Counted from the stretch's first letter, positions 9,290 to 39,549 are shown. The stretch: DNA of 46,118 nt from a virus (IMGVR_UViG_3300048848_000044:1-46118), one strand, 5' to 3'. The notes: a model not told the origin generated them from the sequence alone. Translations and numbers: made by a program.

Positions 9290-9697
9290 TTACAGGTCGA
9301 GCGTCTTCGGCTCGCCCTGGCCTTCGGGGCGGGTAACGCCCACCTTCATGCGCCAGAGGCCGGCCTTTGTCTTGTTCTTCGTAGCCGCGTGGAGGTCGGG
9401 GTTCCAAGCGACGCCGGCCGCGTCGGTTTCGGCGCCAGCGCTCTCGCCGCCGTCCTGGCCGTTGTTCGTCGGCGGGATCGCGGGAGCGGCGTTGTCGACC
9501 GCAGCGGCGCGATTGTTTTCGGTATTGACGGGTGCCGGCTTCGCGCCGCCCTTCACCTTACCGCCAACGCTCCAGCCGGCCGGCACGTCGCCTTCGGCAT
9601 CGAACGACTGGCCTTCACCGTTGGGGCCAGTAGCCCACTGCGGCCAATCCTGGTGAACGTAGGGCTTGCCTTCGTCCTTGGGAAGCAATTCGGTCAT
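9290..9697 (-). CDS. Small virion-module protein with a DAAGV-W...H-x-x-TK-x-KTKAGLWRMKVGVTRP module; C-terminus TLDL
   Basis: 135-aa ORF with SD GGAGAAAG upstream. Shares a ~35-aa module with gene 33080-33784, including 41 identical nt. Confidence 0.65.
   Translation of the reverse strand: MTELLPKDEGKPYVHQDWPQWATGPNGEGQSFDAEGDVPAGWSVGGKVKGGAKPAPVNTENNRAAAVDNAAPAIPPTNNGQDGGESAGAETDAAGVAWNPDLHAATKNKTKAGLWRMKVGVTRPEGQGEPKTLDL
9327..9367. repeat. 41-nt perfect inverted repeat, arm 1 (partner 33362-33402)
   Basis: The reverse complement equals AAGGCCGGCCTCTGGCGCATGAAGGTGGGCGTTACCCGCCC. Confidence 0.9.
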
Positions 9698-9721
9698 TTT
9701 ACTTTCTCCTTCGGGTTGAAC

Positions 9722-10336
9722 TTATGCAGCCTTGCCGCGCAAGAAAACGGCGGGGTTCGCCGGTTGCGTGTACGTCGTGAGGCTTGTCGAAAACAAAAGC
9801 TGAATTCCGGCGCCAAAACGGTCCGGGATATTGTCGATGGGCATAGCCGCCGTAGCGCCAGCCGCAACCGCGACGACGTTCAGCACAAGCGCCGCCGTGA
9901 GAGCCGCACCGGCAGCGGGGGCGGCGGCAGCATTGTAAGCAATCAGGAAGCCAGCCGTTGCCCCGGCTGTAATCGACGCGCTGACAAGGTTGCCGGCTGT
10001 CCCCTTAAGCTGGAGCTGGAAAGCGCCTTGTGCCACGAGAGGGACGACGGCAGCGGCGGCAGCGGCCGAAGCGGCGCGGACGAAATACGTTCCCGAAGTG
10101 TCGCCTCGCTGGCGATCCCAGGTTGTGCCGTTGAAGACGTAGCCACGGGCGACGACGGATTGCTTGTCCGCAGTAGCCGAAACCGCCGAGCCGTCCGCGT
10201 TGTCGGCCGCGAGAGCCGGCGACGTACCGCCCGCGCCATAGGTGACGGTAACTTGCAGCCTGCCGTTGCCGTCGGTTTTCACTTGCTGCGGGACGTTCCC
10301 CGTAGGGTTTACGCCGTGGATTACTGCCTGCGACAT
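9722..10336 (-). CDS. Ala/Gly-rich capsid-associated protein (decoration/cement candidate)
   Basis: 204 aa from ATG 10336 with SD AGGAAGGA. Lies immediately after the leaky terminator that follows the MCP gene. Confidence 0.5.
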   Translation of the reverse strand: MSQAVIHGVNPTGNVPQQVKTDGNGRLQVTVTYGAGGTSPALAADNADGSAVSATADKQSVVARGYVFNGTTWDRQRGDTSGTYFVRAASAAAAAAVVPLVAQGAFQLQLKGTAGNLVSASITAGATAGFLIAYNAAAAPAAGAALTAALVLNVVAVAAGATAAMPIDNIPDRFGAGIQLLFSTSLTTYTQPANPAVFLRGKAA

Positions 10337-10353
10337 TCTAAATTCCTTCCTGG

Positions 10354-10389
10354 AAAACAAAAACCCCCTGGCTCGGGTGAACCAGGGGG
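10354..10389 (-). terminator. Rho-independent terminator after the major capsid gene
   Basis: On the minus strand: CCCCCTGG-10 nt loop-CCAGGGGG followed by TTTTTGTTTT. Confidence 0.75.
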
Positions 10390-10428
10390 TTTCCGTCCAC
10401 CCGAACCCGGAGAACTAGGCCGGCCGAA

Positions 10429-12917: not shown

Positions 12918-15044
12918 TTACTGTTCTCCGTTGGTTTTGCCCGGTTGGGCGGTCTTACTCGCATTGACGGCGAGATTTGCTAGGTCGCGCATTTCGGCAT
13001 GGTCCTGCCGACGATCCTCGTCCTGAATTGCGTTGTGCTGATCGTAGGCGGCGAGAACTTGCGACACGTCGCGGTCCTCGTTTTTGCTGTCCACGTCCAG
13101 GCGGCGGCTTTGCGCGTCCATCTGCGCTTTGTAGGCGTTGGCGCGTGCGGCTTCCGCTTGCGCGAGACGAAGGTTCGCCTGCGCTTCGGTATTCTTGAGC
13201 GTGACGGTAGCATTCGCCATTTCGAGCTGCTGCGCCTGCGCCTGCTGCTGTTGGTTCGCCTGCATAGCCTGCTGCTCTTCCGGCGTCATTTCGTCGACCG
13301 GAATTGTTCCCGGGGGCAGCATCATCCGGAAGCGCTTCGCAAATTCGTCCGCCTTCGGCCAATCCTGCGCCTCTGCCACAAGGTCCATGACGGCGGCGCC
13401 GGCCTGCGGGATCGCATTTACGAAAGCCATCATTTGTTCGGCTGCGAGCGTGCGCTTGGTTTGCGTTGCCGGGCCGACGCTGACCGTAATTCCGTACTTG
13501 CCCACGGTTACGTCGCTCTCGGGGTTCGTCGGATCGTTCAGTAGCGCCATGACGCTTTTCCCGTCGCGGCCGACAATTGCGACCATGCGTTGCGTGTCGT
13601 AAATATACGGGATCAGCTCATTGATATTTTTCGCGCACCGTTCATCCGCCAGACGCAGACGGTCATGGTAGACGAAGCTCCCCAGGTCGGAAACCATTTG
13701 CCGCTGCTGGATGGCCTTGCCGGAAACTTCGTTGCCGTTCTGCCCCAGGCTCGCTTCGTGGATATTGGAAATATCCTTCAAGTCCTGCATGGACGCGAGC
13801 GTTTCGTTCATCAGGCCGGCGTCAACGCCCGGGGGCGGGATATGCTCGGGCTTCGTTTCCCCGTCATTGTAGAACATGAACGGATCGTCGGAATTTGCCG
13901 AACGCCTCCAGCGCGCTTCGTGGCCGCGAACGGCTTCGGGCGTCGTCAGCCACTTATTGCGCGGCGCGGCGACGAGCTGTTCAGCCTGCATCGAGCGCCA
14001 GTAATTATGCAAGCGCTGCGGGTCTTTCAGGAACCGGATCAGGCCAAAGCGGTGCAGCGTTTCCCCGTCCGAAATTTCCCAACCGGGAACGCGATAAATC
14101 GGGATCGACGAAATCGGGTAATCGAACGGACCTTCCAGCACGTCTTTCCCGCTGCAAATATAGAGACGAGCGAAACGGTTGGGAATTTCCCGGGTGTAGG
14201 GCGTGCCGTCGTCGCGCACTTCGACTTCGTTGATATACTCGTATTCTTCCAAGCCGGTTACGTCGTGCGTCGTGCCGTCCTGCATGAGCGCAAGCGTCTT
14301 CATGCCTTCCGTCACCATGCGCCAATAGCTGACGACGCGCACCGTGTCTTCGTCGAGCCAATAGCCCGTCTGGTTCCACGCCGTACTATCGGCAAACGAC
14401 GTTTCCGCCGCCCACGGCCAGCGCGCCTTGAAATCCTTGCGCGGCATGTCTTCTTCGACCCAGCCGAAACGCGCATCACCGCCCGACGGCTCGACAGAAA
14501 GCGGATCGAACGTCGCGGCGTAGGGATCGGGGATATGGCCGATAGAAATCTGCTGTTCGAATACGTCGTCGCCGGCATAGTCGATTTTCAGGCAGAACGC
14601 GCCCTGCCCGCCGATAACCTGATATTTCAGGGCTTCGTCGCGAGCGAGGTCAGCTTGGGAATTCTTGTAGATCGAGCGAATGAGCGCTTCCCGCAGCTCG
14701 GCTTGCGGCTTCGTGCCTGCCTTGTCGGGCCACACGCGGATTTCCGTTTCGTTCATCAGGCGATTGCCGACGATTTGCGCCATGAAGGCGACGAGACGGT
14801 TGAAGGTCAGGACGGGCTTGCGCTGCGCCTTGCGACGCTGGCGAACGACTTCTTCCCACTGCTCGCCAACGGTAAACTTCGCGTCTTCCTGGCCGGCGTC
14901 CTGGTTGTGCTGGTTGAAAGACTTGGCGCTCTCGTAGCGCTCCCGCATTTCCTTTAGGAAATCTTCGGCATCGTCATAGCCCGACGGCGTTTTTGCCCGC
15001 GTCGCGGCGTTCGGGTCTTTCTCAAGTCCTTGAACCCAAGCCAT
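12918..15044 (-). CDS. Portal protein
   Basis: 708 aa, directly downstream of TerL and upstream of scaffold and MCP. Gln/Ala-rich helical C-terminal tail (EEQQAMQANQQQQAQAQQLEMANA...) like the barrel of P22-type portals. Confidence 0.85.
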   Translation of the reverse strand: MAWVQGLEKDPNAATRAKTPSGYDDAEDFLKEMRERYESAKSFNQHNQDAGQEDAKFTVGEQWEEVVRQRRKAQRKPVLTFNRLVAFMAQIVGNRLMNETEIRVWPDKAGTKPQAELREALIRSIYKNSQADLARDEALKYQVIGGQGAFCLKIDYAGDDVFEQQISIGHIPDPYAATFDPLSVEPSGGDARFGWVEEDMPRKDFKARWPWAAETSFADSTAWNQTGYWLDEDTVRVVSYWRMVTEGMKTLALMQDGTTHDVTGLEEYEYINEVEVRDDGTPYTREIPNRFARLYICSGKDVLEGPFDYPISSIPIYRVPGWEISDGETLHRFGLIRFLKDPQRLHNYWRSMQAEQLVAAPRNKWLTTPEAVRGHEARWRRSANSDDPFMFYNDGETKPEHIPPPGVDAGLMNETLASMQDLKDISNIHEASLGQNGNEVSGKAIQQRQMVSDLGSFVYHDRLRLADERCAKNINELIPYIYDTQRMVAIVGRDGKSVMALLNDPTNPESDVTVGKYGITVSVGPATQTKRTLAAEQMMAFVNAIPQAGAAVMDLVAEAQDWPKADEFAKRFRMMLPPGTIPVDEMTPEEQQAMQANQQQQAQAQQLEMANATVTLKNTEAQANLRLAQAEAARANAYKAQMDAQSRRLDVDSKNEDRDVSQVLAAYDQHNAIQDEDRRQDHAEMRDLANLAVNASKTAQPGKTNGEQ

Positions 15045-17258: not shown

Positions 17259-17432
17259 TCAAAGGTCGAAACTCGGCTGATCGGGGGTCGGCTGCGGCCC
17301 GTCCAGCACGTCGGGAACCGAATAGCCGTCCAGCTTGGCTTCCGCCAGCACTTGGGCCATGTCTTCGACGACTTCGCGCTGTTTTTTGCGCAGGAGGTCC
17401 ATTTGACCGCGATAGATATCCAGACTTTTCAT
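17259..17432 (-). CDS. Hypothetical small protein; C-terminus SFDL
   Basis: 57 aa (MKSLDIYRGQMDLLRKKQ...). The ATG overlaps the upstream stop (ATGA). Confidence 0.5.
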   Translation of the reverse strand: MKSLDIYRGQMDLLRKKQREVVEDMAQVLAEAKLDGYSVPDVLDGPQPTPDQPSFDL

Positions 17433-17710
17433 AGATCGTACTCCGAAGCGGCCTTCGCCGCGTAGAAGGCTGCGAATTCGTCTTCCTCTTCGACGGGAGC
17501 CGGCACCGGGGCGGGCTTCGTCGTGGCGATGACAAGCGGGAACATTTCGTCGAACGGCGGGGCGCCAAGCTGCTGCGCTGCGCATTTCAGGTCCGCAATA
17601 ATCCCGGTGCCAAGCCACGGGTAAGATTTGTCACGGGATAGCTGATTTGCCCATGTGTTCAGCCGGCGCCCGAGCCCTTCGGGAATGCCGAATTGCGGAA
17701 GGTCGGCCAT
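17429..17710 (-). CDS. Hypothetical protein; acidic EEEDEFAAF patch and C-terminus SEYDL
   Basis: 93-aa ORF. TGATG overlap with the upstream gene. Confidence 0.6.
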   Translation of the reverse strand: MADLPQFGIPEGLGRRLNTWANQLSRDKSYPWLGTGIIADLKCAAQQLGAPPFDEMFPLVIATTKPAPVPAPVEEEDEFAAFYAAKAASEYDL

Positions 17711-19698: not shown

Positions 19699-19884
19699 TC
19701 AATAATCCTCCAACGCCCGACGAACCTCGCCCACGCTCATGTCGTCGGGCAGCTCGTCGAGAAAATTGAGCAACGTGCGCGCGAAAATCCGCACATCGTT
19801 TTTGCTCGCCATCGGGGTTTTGAAGCTGGAACCACCCGAGCCGGGCGCGGCGCTTTCGAGCGCTTCGATTACGTCGTCGTTCAT
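19699..19884 (-). CDS. Hypothetical small acidic protein
   Basis: 61-aa ORF. The ATG overlaps the upstream stop (ATGA). Confidence 0.55.
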   Translation of the reverse strand: MNDDVIEALESAAPGSGGSSFKTPMASKNDVRIFARTLLNFLDELPDDMSVGEVRRALEDY

Positions 19885-20051
19885 AGGTCGAACGCCTGTT
19901 CCGGATCGCCGGCATGGGCGCGCTTGAGATTGGCAATCTGCTCGGCCAGCTCTTCGCAGTTGCGTTCGTACCCGGGCTTACCGTCGCGGCTTGCTAGCTT
20001 TCGCTCCAGGTGCGCAATACGCTGGAGACGCGGGTGTGTATCGGAGGCCAT
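19881..20051 (-). CDS. Hypothetical small protein; C-terminus AFDL
   Basis: 56 aa from ATG 20051 with SD AAAGGAA. First gene after the 20086-20116 terminator. Confidence 0.55.
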   Translation of the reverse strand: MASDTHPRLQRIAHLERKLASRDGKPGYERNCEELAEQIANLKRAHAGDPEQAFDL

Positions 20052-20085
20052 GGCGTTCCTTTCTTGATCCATCCCCGCCATAACG

Positions 20086-25425: not shown

Positions 25426-25429
25426 AACC

Positions 25430-25695: not shown

Positions 25696-26252
25696 ACGTT
25701 CACGAAATTGCAGAGAAATATAATTTGCCCATTCGCAAGCTCAAAAAGCTGGAAGCGGACGGGCTGCTAGTGACGACGGCCGGCGATAGTCGCCCGATCA
25801 AAATGCGCGCTTATCTGTCAAGCAATCGGCCGCTCTCTGTCGTCCAGCTAATCGACCTTAAGCGCGATAGCTCCGGAGCGCTGCTAGGGCGCCTTGGCGG
25901 GTATCGTATCCGCGCGGAAGAATTGCTGGCAGAGCTTGGCGACATTGCGGCCGGCGCGCATCCTGGCGGGACCGCCACAAGCCGGCTATATGGCGCGGCA
26001 ATCCTGGAACGGCCGGCGCTCGACGCTCTAGCGGAATGGCTCCGGGAAACTATCCCGCCGCAAGGTTGCAGCTATCACTATGTCGCCACGCGCCTTTTGT
26101 GGAACGTGCCGGCCGATCAGCTCCCGCGCGCTTACAAATTCCTCCCGCGCGCCTTGATAAATCTTCGCGCTCTTCCCGAGCTTGCCGGATGGTCGACGAA
26201 AGAAAAAGGCGAAGGAACGCGATTTATTCGTCCGAAACCGCTTGACCTCTAG
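25692..26252 (+). CDS. Putative DNA-binding protein (MerR/excisionase-type HTH at N-terminus); C-terminus PLDL
   Basis: 186 aa with an ATGA overlap. The N-terminus HEIAEKYNLPIRKLKKLEADGLL resembles the HTH_17/MerR type. Confidence 0.55.
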   Translation: MNVHEIAEKYNLPIRKLKKLEADGLLVTTAGDSRPIKMRAYLSSNRPLSVVQLIDLKRDSSGALLGRLGGYRIRAEELLAELGDIAAGAHPGGTATSRLYGAAILERPALDALAEWLRETIPPQGCSYHYVATRLLWNVPADQLPRAYKFLPRALINLRALPELAGWSTKEKGEGTRFIRPKPLDL

Positions 26253-26270
26253 GTGACGTTAGGTTAGGTC
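26241..26270 (+). promoter_or_regulatory. Conserved promoter-like motif P3: CTTGACC-N6-TGACGTTAGG-N2-AGGT
   Basis: TTGACCTCTAGGTGACGTTAGGTTAGGTC. Matches 28449-28477 at 21 of 29 positions with identical spacing. Lacks a canonical -10 box. Confidence 0.5.
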
Positions 26271-26299
26271 AGTTTTAGCAAATCAAGGGAATTGATCCA

Positions 26300-27494: not shown

Positions 27495-27893
27495 ATGTCG
27501 GCGCTCGACCTGGAAGAATTCGCGCAAGCTCTTCGCGTCGGCGCCGATAACCGGCTAGCTGACCTTGGCGCCGAAATCCTGGAGCTACTAGACGGCGCGT
27601 GGATGGCGGACGCTTATCTGCAAGCCTTGGAAGGGCTGGAGCGGATAACCGAACAGAAATTCCCGGACCGTGCCGAAGACGAAGTGGCGGCGCTCCATCT
27701 TGATTGGATCGAGGCGCGCTTAGCCAAGCTGGAAGAAGCCGACGAAGGGCGCGAAGAAGCCATGGCGGACGCGCTGGAAACTCTGACGGATGCGGCCGGG
27801 CTGATTGAGGAAGCCGGCAAGGCCTTTACCGCCATGCTAAAGCCGGCGACATGGGAAGGCGAAAGCCTGGAAACTCTGGAGTATGACCTATGA
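27495..27893 (+). CDS. Highly acidic helical protein (DNA-mimic/anti-restriction candidate); C-terminus LEYDL
   Basis: 132 aa with a large excess of Asp/Glu over Lys/Arg throughout. Confidence 0.6.
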   Translation: MSALDLEEFAQALRVGADNRLADLGAEILELLDGAWMADAYLQALEGLERITEQKFPDRAEDEVAALHLDWIEARLAKLEEADEGREEAMADALETLTDAAGLIEEAGKAFTAMLKPATWEGESLETLEYDL

Positions 27894-28548: not shown

Positions 28549-30456
28549 ATGCCGACTTTACCGGAGCAACTAGCCGGCTGCAAGCTCTTTCCTTGCTTGC
28601 CGGGCGATAAGCTCCCCGCAATTGATGGCTGGCAACATCGGGCGACCGATGACGCGGAACAGGTCGAAGAATGGGACCGGCAAATGGCCGGGCTCAATTG
28701 GGGAGTTGTCTGCGGCCTCTCGGGGCTCTTCGTTTTCGATATCGACCCGCAGGGACAAGCGGCGTGGGAAGCTCTCCAGGCGGCTAATCCCGAGCTGCGC
28801 GAAGCCGTTGCACGATCGTTCACCGTCCGGACGCCACGCGGCGGATTTCACCACTATTTCAGGGGCTACGGCCCGACCACGGCAAGCCGCATTGCCGAAG
28901 GTATCGACACGCGCGGCGGCTACCTGGACGAAGCGACCGGCCGGTGGAAGTCGCTTGGCTTCGTCGTCCTCCCGGGCTCAAAAACGGTTGCCGGCCCTAA
29001 GACGGTCGACGGGGAATATGTGGCGCTTGGCGGCGTCCTCGCTTCCATGTCGCCGGCCGTGGCGGGTATTGTGCCCGAGCGCAAGAAAGGCACCGTTCAC
29101 GGGCTGGAGCGTTCGCCCGACCAGGATCAGCCCCGCAATGTGCAATGGGCGCGCGACCTCCTGGAAAACTACGTTCGCGAAGGCCGGGTTTCCGTCGAAG
29201 GGAATGGCGGCAATAACGTAGCTTTCCAGGTTGCCGCCTCAATTCTCGACAAGGCGATTTCTCCCGCGCTCACTTACGAGCTAATGGACGAAATGTGGAA
29301 CCCGCATTGCTCCCCGCCGTGGGACGATTGGGAGCTGGAGCGGATTGTCGGGAACGCCGCGAAATATGGCGAAGAGACGGGGCAAGGCGCCAAGGGTTTC
29401 GAGGATAACCAAAGCGCGTTCGCTGCCTTCGCCGGGATGGAAACGCCGCCCGACGATCCGAAGGCGGAAAAGCCCAAAGGCCGCTTCAAGCCAATGTGGC
29501 TCCGCGATGCGCGGAAAGACGTGCGGGAAGCGAGCTGGCTTGTGCCCGGGTTGCTGCCGTCCAGGGGAACGGGAATTCTCTACGGACTTTCCGGCAGCTA
29601 TAAAACTTTCGTGGCGCTCGATTGGGCGTTGTCGCTCGCGTTCGGGATCGCCGGCCAATGGGGAACGCCGCCCGTCAAGCACAACGTTCTGTTTCTCGCT
29701 GGCGAAAGCTCCTATGCGCTGGCGCAAGAGCGCGTCGATAGCTGGTGCGAATGGCAGGGCGTCGACCCGGACGCTGCCGATTTCGTGATTGTCCGGGGCG
29801 TGCCGGCGTTCAACGATAAGGAAGGCTGGGAAGAAGTCCGCGACGGATTGCGCGGGCTCAATTCCATTCCGCAGCTAGTCGTCGTCGACACGCTCACGCG
29901 CGTTATGTCGGGGATGGACGAAAATTCCAACAATGACGCCAAGCTAGTGCTAAAGCACATGGAAGAAATTTCAGAGCATTACGGTTGTTTCACATTGTCC
30001 ACGGGCCATACCGGCAAGGACGAAGGGCGCGGAATGCGCGGTGCGCAAGTTTTCCTGGATAACAGCGACGCGGTAATCTACGCGAAGAAAACCGGGAACG
30101 GAACAAAACTCCAGGTCAAGAAATTAAAAGAAGTCGATATCCCGGACCAACCGTTCCACATGGAGAAAAAGGTTTTCGGGAAGTCCATCGTTCTCGTGCG
30201 GACCGAGCAAGCCGCGCCGGAAGAGCAAGAGAACGGCAGCAAGGTTAGTTGGGCGCAGACAAGCGAAATCGTCGCCAGGATCGCGAAGCAAGGCGGGAGC
30301 TGCGGCTTCAAAACGCTCTGCCAGGATATCGCGGCGGAATTGCATATCGACCAGAAGAAAATCGAGCGGACGCTTAACGCGAACAAGGATTTGCAGTGGC
30401 TTCGCGAAGGCAACAATTGGCGCTTGCCGCCGACCGATCTGGAGTTTGACCTATGA
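28549..30456 (+). CDS. Bifunctional AEP primase-polymerase / PriCT / RepA-like (AAA_25) helicase; C-terminus LEFDL
   Basis: 635 aa. Prim-pol motifs LFVFDIDPQG and FTVRTPRGGFHHYF. PriCT-like GNGGNNVAFQVAASIL. Walker A GLSGSYKTF and Walker B LVVVDTLTRVM. Confidence 0.85.
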   Translation: MPTLPEQLAGCKLFPCLPGDKLPAIDGWQHRATDDAEQVEEWDRQMAGLNWGVVCGLSGLFVFDIDPQGQAAWEALQAANPELREAVARSFTVRTPRGGFHHYFRGYGPTTASRIAEGIDTRGGYLDEATGRWKSLGFVVLPGSKTVAGPKTVDGEYVALGGVLASMSPAVAGIVPERKKGTVHGLERSPDQDQPRNVQWARDLLENYVREGRVSVEGNGGNNVAFQVAASILDKAISPALTYELMDEMWNPHCSPPWDDWELERIVGNAAKYGEETGQGAKGFEDNQSAFAAFAGMETPPDDPKAEKPKGRFKPMWLRDARKDVREASWLVPGLLPSRGTGILYGLSGSYKTFVALDWALSLAFGIAGQWGTPPVKHNVLFLAGESSYALAQERVDSWCEWQGVDPDAADFVIVRGVPAFNDKEGWEEVRDGLRGLNSIPQLVVVDTLTRVMSGMDENSNNDAKLVLKHMEEISEHYGCFTLSTGHTGKDEGRGMRGAQVFLDNSDAVIYAKKTGNGTKLQVKKLKEVDIPDQPFHMEKKVFGKSIVLVRTEQAAPEEQENGSKVSWAQTSEIVARIAKQGGSCGFKTLCQDIAAELHIDQKKIERTLNANKDLQWLREGNNWRLPPTDLEFDL

Positions 30457-30686
30457 AAATCGAAACCGGAAAGCCCGTTATCGAAGGCCGGTATGTCGCT
30501 TACGTCGAAGGAATTTTGGGATACCTGGAGCCGCATATTCTCGTCTGGCATCGCGGCCGGTGGACCTATCACCAATCCAGCCAGCTTTACGATGACCCGG
30601 TGCTTGCGTTCATGGGTCCGCTACCGACGCTCGCCAAGCCCGGGAAGGAAGCCGTTCCCGAAGTGTCGACGGAATACGATCTATGA
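30453..30686 (+). CDS. Hypothetical protein; C-terminus TEYDL
   Basis: 77-aa ORF with an ATGA overlap. Confidence 0.6.
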   Translation: MKIETGKPVIEGRYVAYVEGILGYLEPHILVWHRGRWTYHQSSQLYDDPVLAFMGPLPTLAKPGKEAVPEVSTEYDL

Positions 30687-31129
30687 TTACGCCGAATTAT
30701 CGCCTTGCTCGGGATATCGTCAGCCGGGGGAACGAGCCCGGGATAATCCGCGAATGGTTCGCCGGGATGAAGGCGTGGGCGGAAAGCAATCCCGGACCGG
30801 ACGCGACGGCGCTGCGCTTGTGGCTCGACATTGCCAAGCCCCGGCCGTTCTATACCGCCGCCGAGCTAGCGAGCATGTGGCCGGCCCTGCGGATTGCCCA
30901 CGGGTACGACAAGCGGGCAACGGAAAAGCCAAGCGCAAACCGTCTCGCGAACGAGCTGGAGTTTCACGGCGTCCGATATCTCGCCGGGGCGGAAGGCACC
31001 TATTATTTTCGCTCGCCATTCACCGGGGAAGCGGCTAAATATTTCATTGTCGAGCGGCCGGGTTACTGGCGCACGAAACGACTAACCCAAGCTGAATTCG
31101 AAGCTGCATTGCTGGGGGAATGCGAATGA
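30683..31129 (+). CDS. Hypothetical protein
   Basis: 148-aa ORF with an ATGA overlap. Confidence 0.6.
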   Translation: MITPNYRLARDIVSRGNEPGIIREWFAGMKAWAESNPGPDATALRLWLDIAKPRPFYTAAELASMWPALRIAHGYDKRATEKPSANRLANELEFHGVRYLAGAEGTYYFRSPFTGEAAKYFIVERPGYWRTKRLTQAEFEAALLGECE

Positions 31130-31452
31130 CCTACACGACGGAACAGATTGCGCAGGCATCCCGGGCGACGCTCCGGGGCGTGCGGCTTTGGGAAGGCGAA
31201 GGCTTGTTCGGGCTCGTCCCGCGCGATGATCGCGGCAACCGGCTATTCAGCGAAGAGCATATGAGCCGAGCGAAAATCATCACGACGGCGCAAATGGCTG
31301 GCATGAGCCTTGCTGAAATCAAAGCCATGCTGGGGAATTTCAACGCGACGGAACGGCAGAAGTTTTCGGATAGGGTTGTGGAAGCCGTCGGCTTTATGCG
31401 TCGGGCGGCGACGTTCCCGATTGCTCCCGAGCGCGAGGCGTTCGACCTATGA
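31126..31452 (+). CDS. MerR-family transcriptional regulator; C-terminus AFDL
   Basis: 108 aa from ATG 31126 (ATGA overlap). MerR HTH pattern YTTEQIAQASRATLRGVRLWEGEGLF..RDDRGNRLFSEEH...AGMSLAEIKAML. Confidence 0.75.
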   Translation: MTYTTEQIAQASRATLRGVRLWEGEGLFGLVPRDDRGNRLFSEEHMSRAKIITTAQMAGMSLAEIKAMLGNFNATERQKFSDRVVEAVGFMRRAATFPIAPEREAFDL

Positions 31453-33911: not shown

Positions 33912-35156
33912 ATGGTCGAATTCGAACATTCCCCGCTAGGCGGCTCCGCTGCGAAACGCTTCCTGAATTGCGGAGCGTCGTTTCTGCTCCAGCGGCTCTT
34001 GATCCTCCACAACGAATACGAGCAACCGCCAACGAGCGAGTTTGCTGACAAGGGCAACGCCGCGCACGAGCTTGCTGCGCACTGCCTGCTGAACGACGAC
34101 GAGCCGTTCGAATATATCGGTGAGAAAGTTGGTAAATACACGGTTCACCCGGCCGACCTGGACCCGGAAGCCGTGGCGGTTTACGTCAACTATTGCCGGG
34201 CGATTATGGAGCAAGGCGGGAACCACGCCACGAGCATAATCGAACAGACTTTTCACCTTCGCGACATTCACCCGCTTTTCAAAGGCACGGTCGATTTCGG
34301 GCACTGGCGCTTGCCGGAATTTTCCTGCGATCCCGGCCTATGGCTTGTCGATTACAAGAATGGCGAAGGCATCGGCGTCGAAGCTTACCGCAACCCCCAG
34401 CTCATGTATTACGCCGTGCTGCTGATTATGGCGCACGCGGAGCTTAAGGCGCTGCCGTTCGATTTTCCCGTCCACCTTGGGATTGTGCAGCCGAATTATT
34501 GGGGCGTCTTCGAAGAGCCCGAAATGTGGCACACCACGATTAGGGAAGTCTTCACGTTTGCCAAGCAAGAATTGCTGCCGGCAATGGAAGCGCTGACGAA
34601 CGACAAGCGGGACATGATCCCCGTCGACGAATTCAAGTCTGGCGATCACTGCCAATTCTGCCCGGTGATGCTGGATTGTCCGAAACTGCGCGAGGCTTTC
34701 GAGACATACGCGCACCAAGACGAGTTTATCGAAATGCTCAAGGACGAAGAAATCTCCGCGCTCTACGCTTTGAAGGACGATGCCCGCCGTTACGCGAACG
34801 AGCTGGAGAAAGTCGCTTTCGCCCGCAAGCTCGGCGGCGGCAACATCACCACGGGCAAGCTGGTCGAAAAAATGGTGCATCGCGCCTGGAAGCCCGGCGC
34901 CGAGCAAGCCGCCGTCCAGCGCTTCAAGGAACACGCCTATAACCCGCGCAAGCTCAAGAGCCCGGCGCAGATGGAAAAGCTTTCGAGCGACGCTAAGGCT
35001 TTCGCCCTGGAATGGGGTTTCAAGCCGGAAAGCGATAGGCTCACAATCGCGCCGTTGACCGATAGGCGGGCAGAAGCCAAGCCGATTACCAACGCCGACG
35101 TTTTCAAGAATTTCGCCACGCCGCCAATCGAGAACCTTCACGATCTAGGCTGGTGA
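33912..35156 (+). CDS. Cas4-like PD-(D/E)XK exonuclease (DUF2800-like)
   Basis: 414 aa. N-terminal Cys (FLNCGASF), LVDYKNGEG (D/E-x-K) and a C-terminal Cys cluster CQFCPVMLDCP. Confidence 0.7.
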   Translation: MVEFEHSPLGGSAAKRFLNCGASFLLQRLLILHNEYEQPPTSEFADKGNAAHELAAHCLLNDDEPFEYIGEKVGKYTVHPADLDPEAVAVYVNYCRAIMEQGGNHATSIIEQTFHLRDIHPLFKGTVDFGHWRLPEFSCDPGLWLVDYKNGEGIGVEAYRNPQLMYYAVLLIMAHAELKALPFDFPVHLGIVQPNYWGVFEEPEMWHTTIREVFTFAKQELLPAMEALTNDKRDMIPVDEFKSGDHCQFCPVMLDCPKLREAFETYAHQDEFIEMLKDEEISALYALKDDARRYANELEKVAFARKLGGGNITTGKLVEKMVHRAWKPGAEQAAVQRFKEHAYNPRKLKSPAQMEKLSSDAKAFALEWGFKPESDRLTIAPLTDRRAEAKPITNADVFKNFATPPIENLHDLGW

Positions 35157-35228: not shown

Positions 35229-36188
35229 ATGGCCGAGAAGTTCAAATTCGTCTGCACCCAGCCCGCCCGCCTGCTTTTCAGCTCGATCACGCAGAAGTCC
35301 GCACCGCGCACCGTTGCCGGCGCAGAGCCGAAATTCTCCGGAACCTTCGGGCTGGAGAAAGTCGACTTCGACTTGATTATCCCCGAAATGGTCAAGGGGA
35401 TCACGAGCGAGACGGGCGGTTTCTCCGGGAACCCGAACGACTACTATCTGGCGTGCATGGGCGGCAATACCGCAGCGGCCCGCGTGATGCAGAAAGCCGA
35501 GCTGGATGCCCAAGCCCTTCGCGGGCAGGGGAAGAATGACGACGCTTTCAAGGCGCTCGAAAAGGCGCAGAAGCGCGCGGACCTCTACAAGCAATACGCT
35601 GGCATCCTCCAGGCGTCTTCGAAATTCGATATCGAGCTGGCGAAGCTCTACAACGGCGCCATCGTCGATATTAAATCCGAGAGCGACCGCGCCCTTGCTG
35701 GCAAGGAAATGTTCTACTCGGGCGCCTACGTCGTGCCGTCCATCGCGCTCCAGGGCTTCCGTCGCAAGAAGCTCGATGACCGCGACGGCGTTACCGCTTT
35801 CCTCCAGAACGTGCTTTTCATCCGCAAGGGCGAGAAAATCGACACGGGCGGCGGTCCTTCGAATTCGGAAGTCTTCGGCGGCTTCGCCAACTACTCCGAT
35901 TACGATCCGACGGCCAACGCCCCGGGCGGCAGCAATTGGGACAATCCGGGAAACGGCACGGGTGCCAGCCAATCGCAGGGGGCGGGTTCGTCTGCGGGCG
36001 GTAACGATCAGTGGAACCAGGGCGCCGGCAACCAGGGCCAGAACGGTCAAGGCGGCAACCAGGGCGGGCAGAACGCCGGCAATCAGGGCGGCTACAACCC
36101 ACAGAACGGTCAGGGCGGCTATCAGCCCCAGGGCGGTTTCCAGGGCAATCAAGGCGGGCAGCAAGGGAACGACGCCCCGCAGTGGTAA
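35229..36188 (+). CDS. Single-stranded DNA-binding protein (T7 gp2.5/DUF2815-like) with a long Gly/Gln/Asn-rich tail
   Basis: 319 aa. OB-like core with FYSGAYVVPSIALQGF...GVTAFLQNVLFIRKGEKI. About 100 aa of GNQG-type low complexity ending in NDAPQW. Lies in the replication module next to the DUF2800-like nuclease. Confidence 0.65.
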   Translation: MAEKFKFVCTQPARLLFSSITQKSAPRTVAGAEPKFSGTFGLEKVDFDLIIPEMVKGITSETGGFSGNPNDYYLACMGGNTAAARVMQKAELDAQALRGQGKNDDAFKALEKAQKRADLYKQYAGILQASSKFDIELAKLYNGAIVDIKSESDRALAGKEMFYSGAYVVPSIALQGFRRKKLDDRDGVTAFLQNVLFIRKGEKIDTGGGPSNSEVFGGFANYSDYDPTANAPGGSNWDNPGNGTGASQSQGAGSSAGGNDQWNQGAGNQGQNGQGGNQGGQNAGNQGGYNPQNGQGGYQPQGGFQGNQGGQQGNDAPQW

Positions 36189-36503: not shown

Positions 36504-36667
36504 TCCGGCCTCCTTATATCACCCGCAAAATCGTCGCGGCCGGAAAGGCGGACGAACCTAACCGGGAGCGGCTGACGCTCGAATGCGGGCACGAGCTTAT
36601 CCAGGCTCCCCGAGCGCAGCGCCGGAAACGCGCCTATTGTCCGGAGTGCAACGAAGGTGCGACCTAA
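36500..36667 (+). CDS. Small zinc-ribbon-like protein
   Basis: 55 aa from GTG 36500 (GTGA overlap). Contains ECGH...CPEC. Confidence 0.4.
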   Translation: MIRPPYITRKIVAAGKADEPNRERLTLECGHELIQAPRAQRRKRAYCPECNEGAT

Positions 36668-36842
36668 TGCCTTCCCGGGGGATTGCTCGCGCTGCGGAAA
36701 GCACGTCGCCCGGGAAGCTGGATGGGTTACGGGAATGGCCGGCCGGAAGAGCTGGCGACTGATCCACGATAGTTGCATCCCCAAAGCGGACGCTAGCGCC
36801 CACGGGCGCCCCTGGATCAAGGGACTGGAGTATGACCTATGA
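36657..36842 (+). CDS. Small Cys-rich protein; C-terminus LEYDL
   Basis: 61-aa ORF with a GTG start. Contains CSRC...H..C. Confidence 0.5.
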   Translation: MRPNAFPGDCSRCGKHVAREAGWVTGMAGRKSWRLIHDSCIPKADASAHGRPWIKGLEYDL

Positions 36843-37012
36843 GCGATGAACGGGCATGGTGGCAGCGGGCGATTGTCCGACGGTTCCGGGAGCTTGTCGC
36901 GTCGCTGGAGGACATGCGGGAAAATGAGCCCGACCTTTTCGAAATGGTCATGGTTACGCCGGAAGCTCAAAAGCTCCGCGAAATCATGACGCCGCTGGAG
37001 TATGACTTATGA
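36839..37012 (+). CDS. Hypothetical small protein; C-terminus LEYDL
   Basis: 57 aa (MSDERAWWQRAIVRRF...). ATGA overlaps at both ends. Confidence 0.5.
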   Translation: MSDERAWWQRAIVRRFRELVASLEDMRENEPDLFEMVMVTPEAQKLREIMTPLEYDL

Positions 37013-37167
37013 GCCCTTGGCATTATCGCAGGATCAAATTCGTTACGTGCGAGCCGCAGATTGCTCCGAACGGGGACACGGTGCGGCTTTTCGTCCATGT
37101 GAAGAATAGCGACCGCAAAAGTCCTTTCCGTCAAACCAACTACGCTCTAGGTACTATCGGGCTATGA
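37009..37167 (+). CDS. Hypothetical small protein
   Basis: 52 aa (MSPWHYRRIKFVTCEPQ...). ATGA overlaps at both ends. Confidence 0.45.
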   Translation: MSPWHYRRIKFVTCEPQIAPNGDTVRLFVHVKNSDRKSPFRQTNYALGTIGL

Positions 37168-39176
37168 AATACGTCGTCCTGGATTTCGAAAGCGCTTCGG
37201 CGTGCGACCTCACGAAATCCGGGGCGTGGCGCTATGCGCAAGATTTCTCGACGTTCCTCACGCACGTTGGGTTCAAGCTGGTCAGCTATAATCAGCCCCA
37301 GCGCACGCGGGTCATTTGGGGCAACGCCGTCAACCGCGTGGACGCCGAATTGCACGAGCTGGCTTCCGATCCGGAAGTGATGTTCGTCGCGCATAACTGT
37401 TCGTTCGAAATCGGCATGTTCAAAGAACACATGGTTTCGCTCGGCTACCCCATGATCCCGAATGAGCGCTGGCACGACACGATGGCCGTCGCCGCTATGA
37501 AGTCCCTGCCGCTCGGGCTGGACGCGCTTATCCGCGCGCTGGAATTGCCCGTGCAGAAGGACATGGAAGGCCATCGGCTCATGCTACGGCTCTGCAAGCC
37601 CGACAAGGAAGGTGGCTGGTCGCACCATACCCAGGATGCGCTTTCCCGGGAAGCTCAATACAACGTAACCGACGTGGACGGGCAATTCGGCGTCCATCTG
37701 GCGCTAGGCGGGCTCGGGCACGACGAACGGCAAGTGTGGCTGGCCGATCAGCGGATAAATCAACGCGGCGTCCTGGTCGACGTGAAATTCATAAATGCTT
37801 GCATGGACGTGCTTGACCAAGTGCGCGTCCCGATGACGGCGGAATTCAAGCAAATCACCGGGGGCATTGCGCCAACGCAGCGTGAGAAATTCCTAAATTG
37901 GGTGAATGAGCAAGGCGTCGCTATGAGCGACATGAAAAAAGCCACGCTCGACGCCATGCTGGACCCGGACGACGAATTCGGTTTCGAGGATCTGGATCAG
38001 CTCGGCTTCGAACCGCTCCCCTACCATGTCCACCGGGCGCTCTCGCTGCGCCGTTCGCTCGCGTCGTCGTCCGTCGCTAAGCTGGAGCGTATGTTGCGGT
38101 GCGCCTCGAATGACGGGCGCGTGCGCTATACCATGCAATACCATGGGGCGGGCACGGGACGTTGGGCCGGCCGTCTTATCCAAATCCAGAATTATCCCCG
38201 GGGCGAAATCCAAGAGCGCCAGGGGCTCACTCCAGAAATTCTAGCTGACGCGATCCTTTCCCGCGACTTGAACCGCATCCGGGATTTGTGGGGCGACGAC
38301 ATATTCAGCGCGATCATTTCGAGCCTGCGGAGCTGCATCGTTCCCGATGTGTCGAAGGGCCGCGTTCTAGCCGTGGGCGACTTCGCGCAAGTCGAGGCGC
38401 GCAACGTACTGTCCTTCGCCGGCCACCATGACCGCGCATTTGAAATGGACAGTACGGACGCTTACGCCGAGCTGGGGTCTATGATTTTCAAACGGCCGAT
38501 CAATAAGCACGACAACCCGAAAGAGCGGCAGATTGGAAAGAACGGACTGCTAGGTTCGGGGTTCGGGCTCGGGCCGCTTGGCTTTCAGGCGAAATTCGCG
38601 CCTAACGAGCCTTTCGAGCTGGCAAAGCTGGCTATCGACACGTACCGCAAGGATTACGCGCCGCTGGTGCCTAAATTCTGGTACGGGCTCTATCAAGCGT
38701 CGGTGGACGCTGTATGGTGCAACGAAGCGCGCACCTACGTTTTCCAGGGGATCGAATTCCGCCGTGAAGGTGAATTCCTCTCGATGCGCCTGCCGAGCGG
38801 CCGCAAAATCTGGTATCACCGGCCTTGCCGAGAAAAGTCGTTCAACCCCGTCACGCGGAACGAATACCCGGCGTGGTCCTATATGTCCTATCAGGGCAAG
38901 AAGTTTCGCCGTAACTTCATGTGGTACGGGCAGCTCATGAACAATCTAGTCCAGGGCTCGGCTCGCGATCTAGTCGTGAACGGTATCTTTATCTGCGAAC
39001 AACAAAACATGCCCGTGGTATTCACCGCGCACGACGAAATTGTTGTCGAGACGGAAGACAGGCCAGGGCTCGCTCTTATGCTCAAGCAAATCATGGAAGA
39101 CATTCCAGCTTGGGCGCGGGAACGCCGGTTCAACGTGAAGGCGGAAACCGACACTATGATAAGGTATCGGAAATGA
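37164..39176 (+). CDS. Family A DNA polymerase with 3'-5' exonuclease domain
   Basis: 670 aa. Exo motifs VVLDFESAS, HNCSFEIGMF and YNVTDVD. Pol motif A VGDFAQVEARNVL, motif B RQIGKNGLLGSGFGLG and motif C FTAHDEIVVE. Confidence 0.9.
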   Translation: MKYVVLDFESASACDLTKSGAWRYAQDFSTFLTHVGFKLVSYNQPQRTRVIWGNAVNRVDAELHELASDPEVMFVAHNCSFEIGMFKEHMVSLGYPMIPNERWHDTMAVAAMKSLPLGLDALIRALELPVQKDMEGHRLMLRLCKPDKEGGWSHHTQDALSREAQYNVTDVDGQFGVHLALGGLGHDERQVWLADQRINQRGVLVDVKFINACMDVLDQVRVPMTAEFKQITGGIAPTQREKFLNWVNEQGVAMSDMKKATLDAMLDPDDEFGFEDLDQLGFEPLPYHVHRALSLRRSLASSSVAKLERMLRCASNDGRVRYTMQYHGAGTGRWAGRLIQIQNYPRGEIQERQGLTPEILADAILSRDLNRIRDLWGDDIFSAIISSLRSCIVPDVSKGRVLAVGDFAQVEARNVLSFAGHHDRAFEMDSTDAYAELGSMIFKRPINKHDNPKERQIGKNGLLGSGFGLGPLGFQAKFAPNEPFELAKLAIDTYRKDYAPLVPKFWYGLYQASVDAVWCNEARTYVFQGIEFRREGEFLSMRLPSGRKIWYHRPCREKSFNPVTRNEYPAWSYMSYQGKKFRRNFMWYGQLMNNLVQGSARDLVVNGIFICEQQNMPVVFTAHDEIVVETEDRPGLALMLKQIMEDIPAWARERRFNVKAETDTMIRYRK

Positions 39177-39268
39177 ACGGGCTCGACGAACACGACGATA
39201 TCACGCCGGGCGAAGGTTGCTTCGTGCTGGTCGTCTATATCCTCTTTCTCATATGGTGCGCGTCGTGA
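39173..39268 (+). CDS. Micro-ORF: 31-aa TM peptide
   Basis: MNGLDEHDDITPGEGCFVLVVYILFLIWCAS. ATGA overlap with the polymerase stop. Confidence 0.35.
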   Translation: MNGLDEHDDITPGEGCFVLVVYILFLIWCAS

Positions 39269-39549
39269 CGGCGGATAAGAAACAGTACGTCCGCCAGCGG
39301 CTCGGGAACCGGCCAGGGGATCATCACTGCCATTGGCCGGGTTGCGACAAGCACGTACCGCCCGCGCAATGGGGATGCCGCACGCACTGGATGAAGCTGC
39401 CGAAATTTCTCCGGGATAAAATCTGGCTAGCATTCCGGCCGGGGCAAGAAATTTCAAAGACGCCAAGCCGGGCCTATGTCGAAGTCGCCCGGGAGGTTCA
39501 AGCCTGGATCAAAGAGCATCACCCGCCTAAGCTGGAGTATGACCTATGA
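39253..39549 (+). CDS. Zinc-finger-like protein; C-terminus LEYDL
   Basis: 98 aa from ATG 39253. An alternative GTG start at 39265 overlaps the upstream stop. Contains HHCHWPGCDKHV...WGCRTHWMKLP. Confidence 0.6.
   Translation: MVRVVTADKKQYVRQRLGNRPGDHHCHWPGCDKHVPPAQWGCRTHWMKLPKFLRDKIWLAFRPGQEISKTPSRAYVEVAREVQAWIKEHHPPKLEYDL

Follow-up and report, generated by a model that had tools for sequence, protein, structure and literature searches.

The interchangeable, hydrophobic-acidic C-terminal tails of the bacteriophage T4 proteins gp43, gp33 and gp55 bind the sliding clamp (PMC2988020), and the C and Mor proteins of phage Mu carry terminal motifs that bind the host beta clamp (PMC12867686). Repeated elements of another kind are known at gene starts, namely the SAS of cluster K mycobacteriophages, a GGAG-containing repeat found immediately upstream of many non-structural gene starts (PMC3203893). 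The viral sequence analysed here (the window, 46,118 nt) encodes proteins with a common hydrophobic-D-L ending. As in T4, one short hydrophobic-acidic C-terminal motif is common to unrelated phage proteins (in T4, the polymerase and transcription factors), and for the D-L tail we propose the further likeness that it may link different DNA transactions to one hub. The T4 tails differ from hydrophobic-D-L in sequence, and their bearers number three to a few, compared with at least 10 families (~20% of genes) here. The DNA polymerase is tailed in T4 (gp43) and untailed here, and T4 encodes its own clamp, gp45, whereas a clamp gene was undetectable in this phage.

Our own codon-usage gene call gave about 67-70 genes in the window, 13 of which end in [Y/F/L]-D-L (Table 1), so that about one-fifth of this phage's proteins carry a DL ending. 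These are the same 13 genes that the preliminary description had counted among about 69, and all the C-termini it listed were recovered on translation, at the same stop codons. Its estimate that random proteins end in DL less than 1 percent of the time agrees with the internal DL dipeptide frequency of the window proteome (0.0061), against which 13 DL ends have a binomial p = 5.5e-16; with the [YFL]DL tripeptide frequency (0.0014) as the chance expectation, p = 4e-24. A DL ending was seen in 0/617 non-called open frames of >=40 codons in the window. Codon usage within the tails is as varied as had been reported (Leu CTA, CTC, CTG, CTT or TTA; Asp GAC or GAT; aromatic residue TAT, TAC, TTT or TTC), and no significant pairwise similarity was found among the 13 proteins (best E-value 0.036, 13-sequence database). 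It is uncertain where 36657-36842 and 19881-20051 start, which leaves their tails unaffected.

Table 1. Window genes ending in the D-L tail, with the last four residues, the stop codon and the adjoining junction.
Gene	Strand	Tail and stop	Tail coordinates	Product	Junction
9290-9697	-	T-L-D-L, TAA	9290..9304	135 aa, largely disordered; gene downstream of coat gene	not start-overlapped
17259-17432	-	S-F-D-L, TGA	17259..17273	57 aa	stop reads TTGA; next called gene begins 23 nt downstream
17429-17710	-	E-Y-D-L, TGA	17429..17443	93 aa	tail codons double as GGAG-N8-ATG for 17259-17432
18318-18689	-	I-F-D-L, TAA	18318..18332	123 aa	not start-overlapped; following gene has its own GGAG
19881-20081 (start uncertain)	-	A-F-D-L, TGA	19881..19895		ATGA overlap with 19699-19884
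25692-26252	+	P-L-D-L, TAG	26238..26252	186 aa	not start-overlapped; GTG directly adjoins TAG
27495-27893	+	E-Y-D-L, TGA	27879..27893	132 aa	GGAG-N8-ATGA with 27890-28405
28549-30456	+	E-F-D-L, TGA	30442..30456	primase-helicase (Prim-Pol + AAA_25)	ATGA with 30453-30686
30453-30686	+	E-Y-D-L, TGA	30672..30686	77 aa	ATGA with 30683-31129
31126-31452	+	A-F-D-L, TGA	31438..31452	MerR family (Pfam MerR_1, E = 2.6e-11)	ATGA with SNF2 helicase gene 31449-33077
36657-36842 (start 36657 or 36735)	+	E-Y-D-L, TGA	36828..36842	small gene	ATGA
36839-37012	+	E-Y-D-L (Leu = TTA), TGA	36998..37012	57 aa	ATGA
39253-39549	+	E-Y-D-L, TGA	39535..39549	98 aa, PHROG 18063	ATGA with 39546-39722

Purifying selection on the tail acts at the amino-acid level. 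The preliminary description had argued for a constraint on the peptide and not on junction DNA alone, and this was borne out by families that are never overlapped by a start, which keep the tail while synonymous codons and stops are free. In the family of 9290-9697, 46/48 members are DL-ended and none is start-overlapped (PLDL, VLDL, TLDL, AIDL and others); in that of 25692-26252 (the 188-aa family) the figures are 15/18 and 0, with TAG, TAA and TGA stops all seen; and in that of 18318-18689 (the 116-aa family) [YF]DL ends 119/120 database homologues and the tail is present in 27/27 loci. The 76 non-overlapped tails found family-wide use every Leu codon (CTT 26, CTG 20, CTC 18, TTG 6, TTA 3, CTA 3), both Asp codons (GAC 46, GAT 30) and every stop (TAA 55, TAG 17, TGA 4), with ~0.1 bit of information at nucleotides -13 to -10. 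Within the window the enrichment likewise survives the exclusion of ATGA junctions, since 4/46 genes without a start overlap are DL-tailed (p = 1.8e-4); the earlier count of four such tails holds with the qualification that the TTGA at the stop of 17259-17432 would allow a TTG overlap.

What is conserved as peptide is the core hydrophobic-D-L-COOH only ([Y/F/L/I/H]-D-L), on at least 10 unrelated protein families. The linker before it varies in length and is rich in Pro or acidic; Pro occurs at -10 to -4 in 70% of DL-tailed proteins versus 22% of others family-wide, in agreement with the Pro-containing linker described before. In the alignment of the 18318-18689 family an acidic linker of variable length leads to an invariant D-L, and AlphaFold2 predicts the tail as coil (pLDDT <50 for the last 4 residues). 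Other bearers are similarly constant, with E[YF]DL in 22/23 members of the 17429-17710 family (some of them without a start overlap), FDL in 5/5 members of the 17259-17432 family, and DL in 34/36 members of the 30453-30686 family (75-aa family) and 27/27 of the MerR-like family. The tail of 19881-20081 is not conserved (2/12 and 3/23 members).

The tail is a trait of the whole phage clade, lineage-specific and near all-or-none per genome, and its inheritance follows the protein family independently of the junction. The clade comprises uncultivated podovirus-like phages with a P22-type portal, a Prim-Pol/AAA primase-helicase and a family-A DNA polymerase module. Across more than 100 related metagenomic loci the tail is found on ~15-20% of genes (149/703 in 25 replication-arm loci; 269/1829 in a de-duplicated set including structural-arm loci), and in more distant relatives on ~1% (6/512). 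Orthologues retain it across 40-60% sequence divergence, the conservation in related phages for which the preliminary description had proposed to search. The primase-helicase has DL in 115/120 database homologues (>=48% identity) and in 29/29 loci; among its representatives, tails occur at 38-58% identity, persisting to about 38-43% and gone below about 36%, and beyond the twelfth hit (at about <=38% identity) 137/138 are missing it. The PolA, SNF2, DUF2800 nuclease, SSB, 148-aa, coat, scaffold and TerL families are always without the tail, even at ATGA overlaps, and 3/60 members of the portal family have a DL tail. In two sister lineages that share the replication module and have an untailed primase-helicase, DL tails are found on 0/12 and 0/22 genes, and in an intermediate lineage on 3/29. 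Because the tail-less sisters retain PolA, SSB, SNF2, DUF2800 and the 148-aa protein, no replication-module gene tracks the presence of the tail. Where the primase-helicase tail of a genome deviates (EFDI, WGEL), the other tails showed no concerted change.

The reading we favour, with a probability of roughly 0.6, is that the tails represent a true short linear motif, a docking carboxy-terminus for one shared partner, the codons of which are reused at overlaps. The clade would have placed hydrophobic-Asp-Leu-COOH at the very C-terminal end of 10 or more unrelated families, and the free-carboxylate tail would act as a common 'address' peptide tethering its bearers to that partner, an arrangement like that of gp43, gp33 and gp55, with their interchangeable acidic-hydrophobic tails, on the T4 clamp. 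Bearers with an apparent DNA role by Pfam are the primase-helicase and the MerR-type regulator. As partner, the host beta sliding clamp is the leading single candidate, although a tentative one, and an unrecognised phage-encoded hub appears about equally likely. What favours the clamp is the likeness of the tail to endings of the Pol IV type (...L-x-L-COOH); Pol IV ends in ...QLVLGL-COOH, and the bacterial beta-clamp motifs are QL[SD]LF and QLxLxL. Like the D-L tail, they are short and occur at the flexible ends of many unrelated proteins that act on DNA; the 'L-D-L' within QLDLF and the 'L-x-L-COOH' that closes the hexapeptide coincide with the L/F-D-L core, and phage transcription regulators are known users of such motifs. 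This likeness is one of sequence only, however, and the tail has neither the conserved Gln nor the terminal Phe of the canonical QL[SD]LF. Its Asp is invariant where that of clamp-binding motifs is optional, and it is strictly C-terminal, whereas clamp-binding motifs may be internal or N-terminal. Against docking stand further the absence of any replication-module gene that tracks the tail, the unaltered remaining tails of genomes with a deviant primase-helicase, and the unconserved tail of 19881-20081.

Class II PDZ ligands are hydrophobic-x-hydrophobic-COOH (e.g. EFYA, EYYV), and EEVD-COOH binds TPR domains. The D-L tail shares with them the formal pattern E-[YF]-x-hydrophobic-COOH and a strictly terminal position, and in PDZ and TPR systems many clients meet one domain; those systems are eukaryotic or periplasmic. 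Pfam, PHROGs and NCBIfam scans of ~50 window proteins, including all of >=97 aa, yielded no clamp, PDZ, TPR or protease domain, and AlphaFold2 with Foldseek gave no informative fold for two conserved unknown proteins. We found no published description of a hydrophobic-D-L-COOH motif, and the earlier statement that no phage-wide tag of this kind had been described holds for the motif itself; it does not extend to function, for which T4 (PMC2988020) and Mu C/Mor (PMC12867686) are close precedents.

A C-terminal degron, through which a host AAA+ protease (ClpXP, ClpAP, Lon, FtsH) or a phage factor would time the degradation of the bearers, seems improbable, and less likely than docking on the host beta clamp. 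Short tags at the extreme C-terminus of unrelated proteins are the classic degron format, with the ssrA tag and lambda cII and FtsH as precedents; the motif is strictly terminal, suggesting recognition of a free carboxylate, and many bearers are small early-region proteins. The invariant Asp at -2 nevertheless speaks against ClpX- or Tsp-type recognition: in Escherichia coli, ClpXP no longer acts on ssrA tags whose last residues have been made acidic ('DD' tags), and a polar or charged C-terminus has a stabilising effect on proteins. Constitutive instability would also be of no obvious use to a replicative primase-helicase or a structural-arm protein, both among the bearers, and the domain scans detected no protease or adaptor gene in the phage.

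A role in capsid targeting (cargo loading), in which the tail would recruit proteins into the procapsid for delivery to the next host in the manner of encapsulin cargo peptides or the C-terminus of P22 scaffolding protein, is very unlikely. C-terminal targeting peptides are the rule in HK97-fold encapsulins, and the gene of one largely disordered bearer lies directly behind the coat gene in the head module, but there is no precedent for a ~46 kb genome with 13 cargo species, one of them a 635-aa hexameric helicase, and both scaffold and coat are untailed.

Where genes are packed head to tail, the tail codons serve a second time, as the following gene's translation-initiation region. Overlapped tails (n=132) contain GGAG (92/95/89/76% per position), followed after 8 nt by an A/GTG that is fused to TGA: the third-position G of codon -5 and a strong GAG bias at codon -4 form a Shine-Dalgarno GGAG 8 nt before the overlapping start, which itself consists of the third base of the Leu codon and the TG of the TGA stop. 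This reuse forces the rare Leu codons (CTA + TTA 55% versus 11% genome-wide) and favours GAG over GAA (GAG 72% of Glu codons versus 36% genome-wide). The same overlay accounts for the near-identical junction DNA and for the 'L-E' of the L-E-[YF]-D-L motif first described; the hydrophobic-D-L core of that motif stands, while 'L-E' reflects the GGAG, whose nucleotides are nearly informationless in non-overlapping copies.

The tail could be a pure nucleic-acid junction signal, for ribosome binding or translational coupling or of the SAS type, that happens to read E-Y-D-L in the upstream frame. GGAGTAYGAYCTATGA junctions make up 9/13 window tails, RTGA overlaps accompany 80% of family tails versus 36% of other genes, and the GGAG, rare Leu codons and GAG bias represent real RNA-level selection; these tails resemble ordinary 4-nt ATGA/GTGA coupling junctions (PMC12548453) in having the Shine-Dalgarno sequence inside the upstream gene. 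Ordinary junctions, however, impose no fixed tripeptide: the tail is found at 9/19 [AG]TGA overlaps in the window, the 10 others end differently, and families such as PolA (...RYRK) never gain it. SAS offers a precedent for a clade-specific repeated GGAG motif at starts, at times overlapping the end of the upstream gene (PMC3203893), but it is a DNA/RNA 13-mer with nucleotides conserved whatever the upstream frame, whereas the DL tail is conserved as peptide when the next start lies elsewhere. Unlike SAS, the DNA motif here is confined to the window's 9 overlapped junctions, absent from intergenic regions and other frames. The primase-helicase and a 71-aa family retain E[YF]DL where the next gene has a separate RBS, and the nucleotide-selected tail set varies at synonymous or conservative positions only. 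As a sole explanation the junction signal is largely refuted by the never-overlapped tails, with their free codons and unconserved upstream nucleotides, and we give it very little weight.

A nascent-peptide or termination-context signal tuning termination or ribosome recycling, e.g. for re-initiation at the overlapping start, would fit the strong association with overlapping starts and the dependence that termination efficiency can have on the last two residues and codons, but is just as hard to sustain, the 9290-, 18318- and 25692-type families being never coupled and ending in TAA or TAG before an intergenic region or a separate RBS.

Further observations concern individual bearers. The largely disordered protein has a basic RGRP stretch in short relatives that, by eye, gives it an apparent DNA role, and a conserved small protein encoded upstream of the terminase is also among the bearers that appear to act on DNA. 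For the 188-aa family an apparent DNA role was noted by eye, from the HTH-like N-terminus of the 25692-26252 protein, which had no Pfam match. The N-terminal regions of this protein and of the MerR protein resemble each other weakly (E = 0.19) and may share an HTH.

Translation at the stop codons reproduced all 13 C-termini that the preliminary description had listed as ending in [Y/F/L]-D-L-COOH, and the synonymous codon variety reported for these tails was likewise correct. An independent gene call based on codon usage placed D-L at the end of the same 13 genes among the 67-70 genes of the window. Since the D-L dipeptide has a frequency of 0.0061 inside the window proteins, 13 such tails have a binomial p of ~5e-16 (p = 4e-24 when the preceding Y, F or L is also demanded), and DL ended none of the 617 non-coding open frames with 40 codons or more in the window. 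No significant similarity was found when the 13 tail-bearing proteins were compared with each other; 25692-26252 and the MerR protein are weakly alike in their N-terminal regions (E = 0.19), possibly through a shared HTH. Family-wide, proline occurred at positions -10 to -4 in 70% of the tail-bearing proteins compared to 22% of the others, in agreement with the Pro-containing linker described initially.

The window is a complete metagenomic contig of 46,118 bp. The phage encodes a P22-type portal as well as coat, scaffold and large terminase, and its replication module comprises a Prim-Pol/AAA primase-helicase, a MerR-like protein, an SNF2 helicase, a DUF2800 nuclease, an Enc34-like SSB, a family-A polymerase and a resolvase. 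Nothing similar to 16 kb of sequence turned up among GenBank phages by megablast, and an annotated reference genome is absent because tblastn of the primase-helicase and the portal returned only distant relatives at ≤35% identity, with no close relative in GenBank. With over 100 related loci drawn from IMG/VR, metagenomes and MAGs, the observation holds and now reaches across a large clade that is widespread in soil and freshwater, without a cultured member. The MAG bins of related loci (Sphingomonadales three times, Massilia, Chthoniobacterales) point weakly to these taxa as possible hosts.

Metagenomes contain hundreds of homologues of the primase-helicase, located on contigs of 40-46 kb, and among 120 homologues at ≥48% identity, 115 ended in DL (EYDL 53, EFDL 36, EHDL 7, DYDL 5, DFDL 4, and others). 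DL was found at 149 of 703 gene ends in the replication-arm loci of the clade and at 269 of 1829 in a de-duplicated locus set that includes structural-arm loci, compared to 6 of 512 (1.2%) in loci whose primase-helicase is only 24-34% identical. The boundary of the trait was placed by a search of 1.8 billion cluster representatives, in which primase-helicases at 58, 43, 39 and 38% identity had a [FY]DL ending while those at 41% and 36% lacked it, and just 1 of the 138 representatives ranked below the twelfth (~38% identity or less) carried the tail. DL tails numbered 0/12 and 0/22 in two sister lineages that share the replication module but lack the tail, and 3/29 in an intermediate lineage. 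These counts indicate that the tail is lineage-specific and near all-or-none per genome. Matches outside the clade in an exact 16-mer scan of IMG/VR were singletons at about chance level, so that the exact 16-mer motif has no support beyond the clade. The sister lineages also encode a GcrA-like protein (locus L218) and a protein with an alpha-CTD domain (locus L215), a hint of alphaproteobacterial hosts and of manipulation of host transcription.

Tail-bearing families and other features (coordinates of the window unless a related locus is named)
Feature	Coordinates	Strand	C-terminal ending or other property	Tail overlapped with next start
Primase-helicase	28549-30456		DL 29/29	mostly
MerR family	31126-31452		DL 27/27	mostly
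75-aa family	30453-30686		DL 34/36	mostly
71-93-aa family	17429-17710	-	DL 22/23	mostly
57-aa family	17259-17432		DL 5/5	3/5
188-aa HTH-like family	25692-26252		DL 15/18	none
116-aa family	18318-18689		DL 27/27 loci, 119/120 database homologues	essentially never
Disordered structural-arm family	9290-9697	-	DL 46/48	none
19881-20081 family	19881-20081		DL in only 2/12 and 3/23 members	
188-aa family member in L214	6705-7280 (L214)		P-L-D-I, ATA-TGA	overlapping ATG
234-aa protein	33080-33784	+	[FY]-A-G, EFAG in 46/120 homologues	
DUF2800 nuclease	33912-35156		G-[FW]	
Enc34-like SSB	35229-36188		P-A-[FW]	
TerL	15051-16838		GWMG	
PolA	37164-39176		RYRK	
Tad3-like protein, 287 aa	21338-22201	-	Pfam Tad3 (type I Thoeris inhibitor), E = 1.3e-35	
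Inverted repeats	26253-26299		GTTAGGT / ACGTAA-type, short	
GcrA-like protein	12926-13408 (L218)		weak Pfam match	
Alpha-CTD protein	2048-2422 (L215)		RNA polymerase alpha-CTD domain	

Clustering of the called proteins across loci showed that homologues of the tail-bearing proteins keep the tail in most families, the 19881-20081 family being the exception to the conservation of the C-terminal peptide. Three further families that are not in the window carried it in 7/7, 6/6 and 4/5 members. It was never found on PolA, SNF2, the DUF2800 nuclease, SSB, the 148-aa family, coat, scaffold or TerL, even at ATGA overlaps, and DL tails occurred on 3 of 60 members of the portal family. In the mostly overlapped families, E[YF]DL was kept where the next gene has a separate ribosome-binding site (RBS), as in the primase-helicase of locus L022 (CTT TAA) and the 71-aa family of loci L133 and L134. 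Judged from these distributions, the tail belongs to protein families and not to junctions.

The 75-aa family is often present as two adjacent paralogues, both with E[YF]DL (L007, L022, L028, L030, L086). A member of the normally non-overlapped 188-aa family in locus L214 ends with Ile, its ATA-TGA creating an overlapping ATG, and the primase-helicase of locus L213 has the same Leu-to-Ile change with ATA-TGA; in both, the terminal Leu seems to have been given up for the start codon. Other conserved families (those of 33080-33784, the DUF2800 nuclease, the Enc34-like SSB, TerL and PolA) have conserved, family-specific endings of their own.

As 9 of the 13 tails in the window share junction DNA that contains a Shine-Dalgarno sequence, we asked whether the peptide could be a mere by-product of a junction signal. 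The DNA common to these nine ATGA overlaps, (G)GAG-TAY/TTY-GAY-YTA-TGA, corresponds to a Shine-Dalgarno GGAG, an 8-nt spacer and the ATG of the next gene. The degenerate pattern had 9 sites in the window compared to 0.9 expected by chance, and these were exactly the overlapped tails; all nine matches (≤2 mismatches) were in-frame sites at -4 overlaps, and the intergenic regions and other frames of the window had none. Nine of the 19 4-nt overlaps in the window carried the tail and 10 had unrelated endings, and over the families such a coupling junction was present at 132 of 269 tails, the remaining ones not being junctions of this kind.

The 76 clearly non-overlapped tails used all kinds of Leu codons (CTT 26, CTG 20, CTC 18, TTG 6, TTA 3, CTA 3), both Asp codons (GAC 46, GAT 30) and all three stops (TAA 55, TAG 17, TGA 4), and the four nucleotides equivalent to GGAG held only ~0.1 bit. 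Position -3 was L in 43%, Y in 28%, F in 14%, I in 8% and H in 4%, and position -4 was variable (P/E/T/Q). As codons, stops and upstream nucleotides all vary, only hydrophobic-D-L-COOH is conserved in these tails, and it is conserved as amino acids. The preliminary description was therefore right to read the tail at the level of the peptide. The 132 overlapped tails, in contrast, had GGAG at 92/95/89/76% per position, 8 nt ahead of the RTG start, and Glu at -4 in 84%; GAG made up 72% of the tail Glu codons compared to 36% genome-wide, and CTA plus TTA 55% of the Leu codons compared to 11% genome-wide, these rare codons being enriched because they create the ATG. In a set picked by nucleotide similarity alone, variation was confined to third codon positions, the second position of the Y/F codon and the first position of Leu, where it is synonymous. 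The extended L-E-[YF]-D-L proposed at first does not stand as one motif but is a composite, because L is the commonest NNG codon and E (GAG) is largely Shine-Dalgarno, although E is still kept in the few non-overlapped members of mostly overlapped families. Recombination of a junction cassette was considered as a source of the identical DNA and is not needed, since the GGAG constraint predicts NNG at codon -5, which is simply what is found (L, Q, M, P, V, R, T).

The tail is strictly terminal, has an invariant acidic residue between hydrophobic ones, follows a flexible linker, and is borne by unrelated proteins while being stable within families and near all-or-none per lineage. Between a conserved W-x-I-P and the tail, the primase-helicase has 2-7 variable residues, and the conserved helical body of the 116-aa family is joined to the invariant D-L by an acidic linker that differs in length; in the AlphaFold2 model of 18318-18689, residues 98-123 are coil and the last four have pLDDT <50. 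The 9290 family is largely low-complexity, its shortest members consisting of an N-terminal motif, a basic RGRP-containing stretch, which suggests DNA contact, and x-L-D-L. Two bearers act on DNA according to Pfam, the primase-helicase and the MerR-type regulator, and the N-terminus of the 188-aa protein looks HTH-like; neither this likeness nor DNA contact by the 9290 family is backed by a database match. The conserved small protein of the 116-aa family is encoded upstream of the terminase, and from this gene position we would guess a small terminase. Profile searches of two tail-bearing families against PDB sequences and a Foldseek search with the low-confidence helical AlphaFold2 model of the 18318-18689 family gave no match.

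These traits suggest that the tail is most likely a docking short linear motif. The closest precedent would be phage T4, in which gp43, gp33 and gp55 have very similar, interchangeable hydrophobic-acidic C-terminal tails on divergent linkers, by which all three bind the clamp, gp45 (PMC2988020); in phage Mu, terminal QHDLF/QPDLF motifs let C and Mor bind the host beta clamp (PMC12867686). As in T4, one acidic-hydrophobic motif sits at the extreme C-terminus of unrelated phage proteins behind a divergent linker; unlike in T4, no clamp or clamp-loader family was recognisable in the window proteins scanned, where proteins of divergent fold may have escaped. The tail is reminiscent of L-D-L in QL[SD]LF and of the Pol IV ending L-x-L-COOH. 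Of the two forms of the C-terminal hydrophobic anchor, hydrophobic-x-L-COOH may fit L-x-L of QLxLxL but not L-F, the terminal F of the pentapeptide being absent. Gln is not conserved either (Q at -5 in 23% of overlapped and 9% of non-overlapped tails, no preference at -6), so that the tail is no canonical clamp-binding motif. The tail also fits the formal pattern of class II PDZ ligands, hydrophobic-x-hydrophobic-COOH, with [YFLIH]-D-L directly before the stop at the 269 family gene ends. Searches of ~50 window proteins, including all those ≥97 aa, against Pfam, PHROGs and NCBIfam found no clamp, PDZ, TPR or protease that could serve as a phage-encoded hub. No replication-module gene tracks the tail, since the tail-less sister lineages keep all replication-module proteins, and no concerted change was seen: genomes whose primase-helicase ends in EFDI or WGEL keep canonical DL elsewhere, so these deviant tails are uninformative on the partner. 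Literature searches (EYDL/EFDL; shared C-terminal motif in phages) found no description of a hydrophobic-D-L tail.

Mechanistically, the best description is a docking tag that these C-termini share and on which RBS and start functions are superimposed. In its fullest form, to which we give a probability of roughly 30%, this would be a proteome-wide address tag: a three-residue, carboxylate-dependent tail put on at least 10 unrelated proteins, which would attach through it to one common hub, be it a phage protein or an unconventional site on a protein of the host. The hub would join replication (primase-helicase) and gene regulators (MerR, HTH-like protein) into one complex, together with packaging and head assembly if the two bearers without annotation near the terminase and coat genes have a part in these, and the genome would then have been compacted by reusing the tag codons as ribosome-binding sites.

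A degron, also proposed in the preliminary description, is possible but less likely than docking. ClpXP-type recognition is disfavoured by the invariant Asp at -2, for which ssrA-DD variants are the established case; unlike in ssrA-like degrons, whose last two or three residues are non-polar (L-A-A-like) with a free carboxylate, Asp occupies -2 in 117/120 primase-helicase and 119/120 116-aa homologues. A capsid-loading peptide is similarly possible but less likely. Families that carry the tail without ever being coupled contradict an effect of the nascent peptide on coupling. A purely nucleic-acid signal, such as the start-associated sequence (SAS; PMC3203893), shares with the overlapped tails a Shine-Dalgarno core a few bases ahead of the start codon, and our starting assumption was that an RBS and spacer read in frame could be the sole cause; this is excluded, as the tail goes with protein families, the junction motif, unlike an SAS, which is conserved ahead of starts whatever the frame or presence of the gene before it, occurs in the window only in frame at overlaps, and non-overlapped tails, with all synonymous codons, are conserved only as peptide.

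One tripeptide marks about one-fifth of the proteome and is kept over >50% sequence divergence. Eukaryotic cells and their viruses are organised to a large extent by short linear motifs, each tying many proteins to one hub. To our knowledge, few such hub motifs are on record for phages (T4 clamp binding, Mu C/Mor, SSB tails), to which the tail would add, and motif-based interaction networks have so far been described mainly for eukaryotic viruses. Docking would assign at least 10 proteins without known function to one pathway, and the 8-residue peptide offers an immediate experimental handle on the central partner of a "dark-matter" phage. The overlapped tails would also be a clean natural case of dual selection on one codon stretch, as peptide ligand and as RBS/start of the next gene, which bears on gene calling, on the reading of conserved junctions and on the recoding or refactoring of phage genomes.

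Two other short modules are shared between proteins of this phage. A mini-domain of ~40 aa, D..G.PW...LHA.TK.KTK.GLWRMKVGV.RP, is common to 9290-9697 (residues ~95-125) and 33080-33784 (residues ~71-112); it is kept across the clade on otherwise unrelated carriers and is modelled confidently by AlphaFold2 (pLDDT ~93) amid disorder. The model of 33080-33784 is mostly disordered with two small confident domains, and Foldseek found no match for it. An acidic-aromatic helix, EDDEFAAF, occurs in 33080-33784 (residues 148-155) and in 17429-17710 (residues 76-83). Together with the tail, these suggest a mosaic of short interaction motifs, and the exchange of such mini-modules is a hint of a wider interaction network built on motifs.

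Nothing of clear relevance came out of a repeat scan over 22600-26400 in the early region. Short inverted repeats follow the 188-aa HTH-like gene in many clade members, with equivalent intergenic regions in loci L001, L016, L018, L028, L030 and L032, and look like operator sites. By its Pfam match, the Tad3-like protein is an anti-defence gene at the beginning of the leftward arm.
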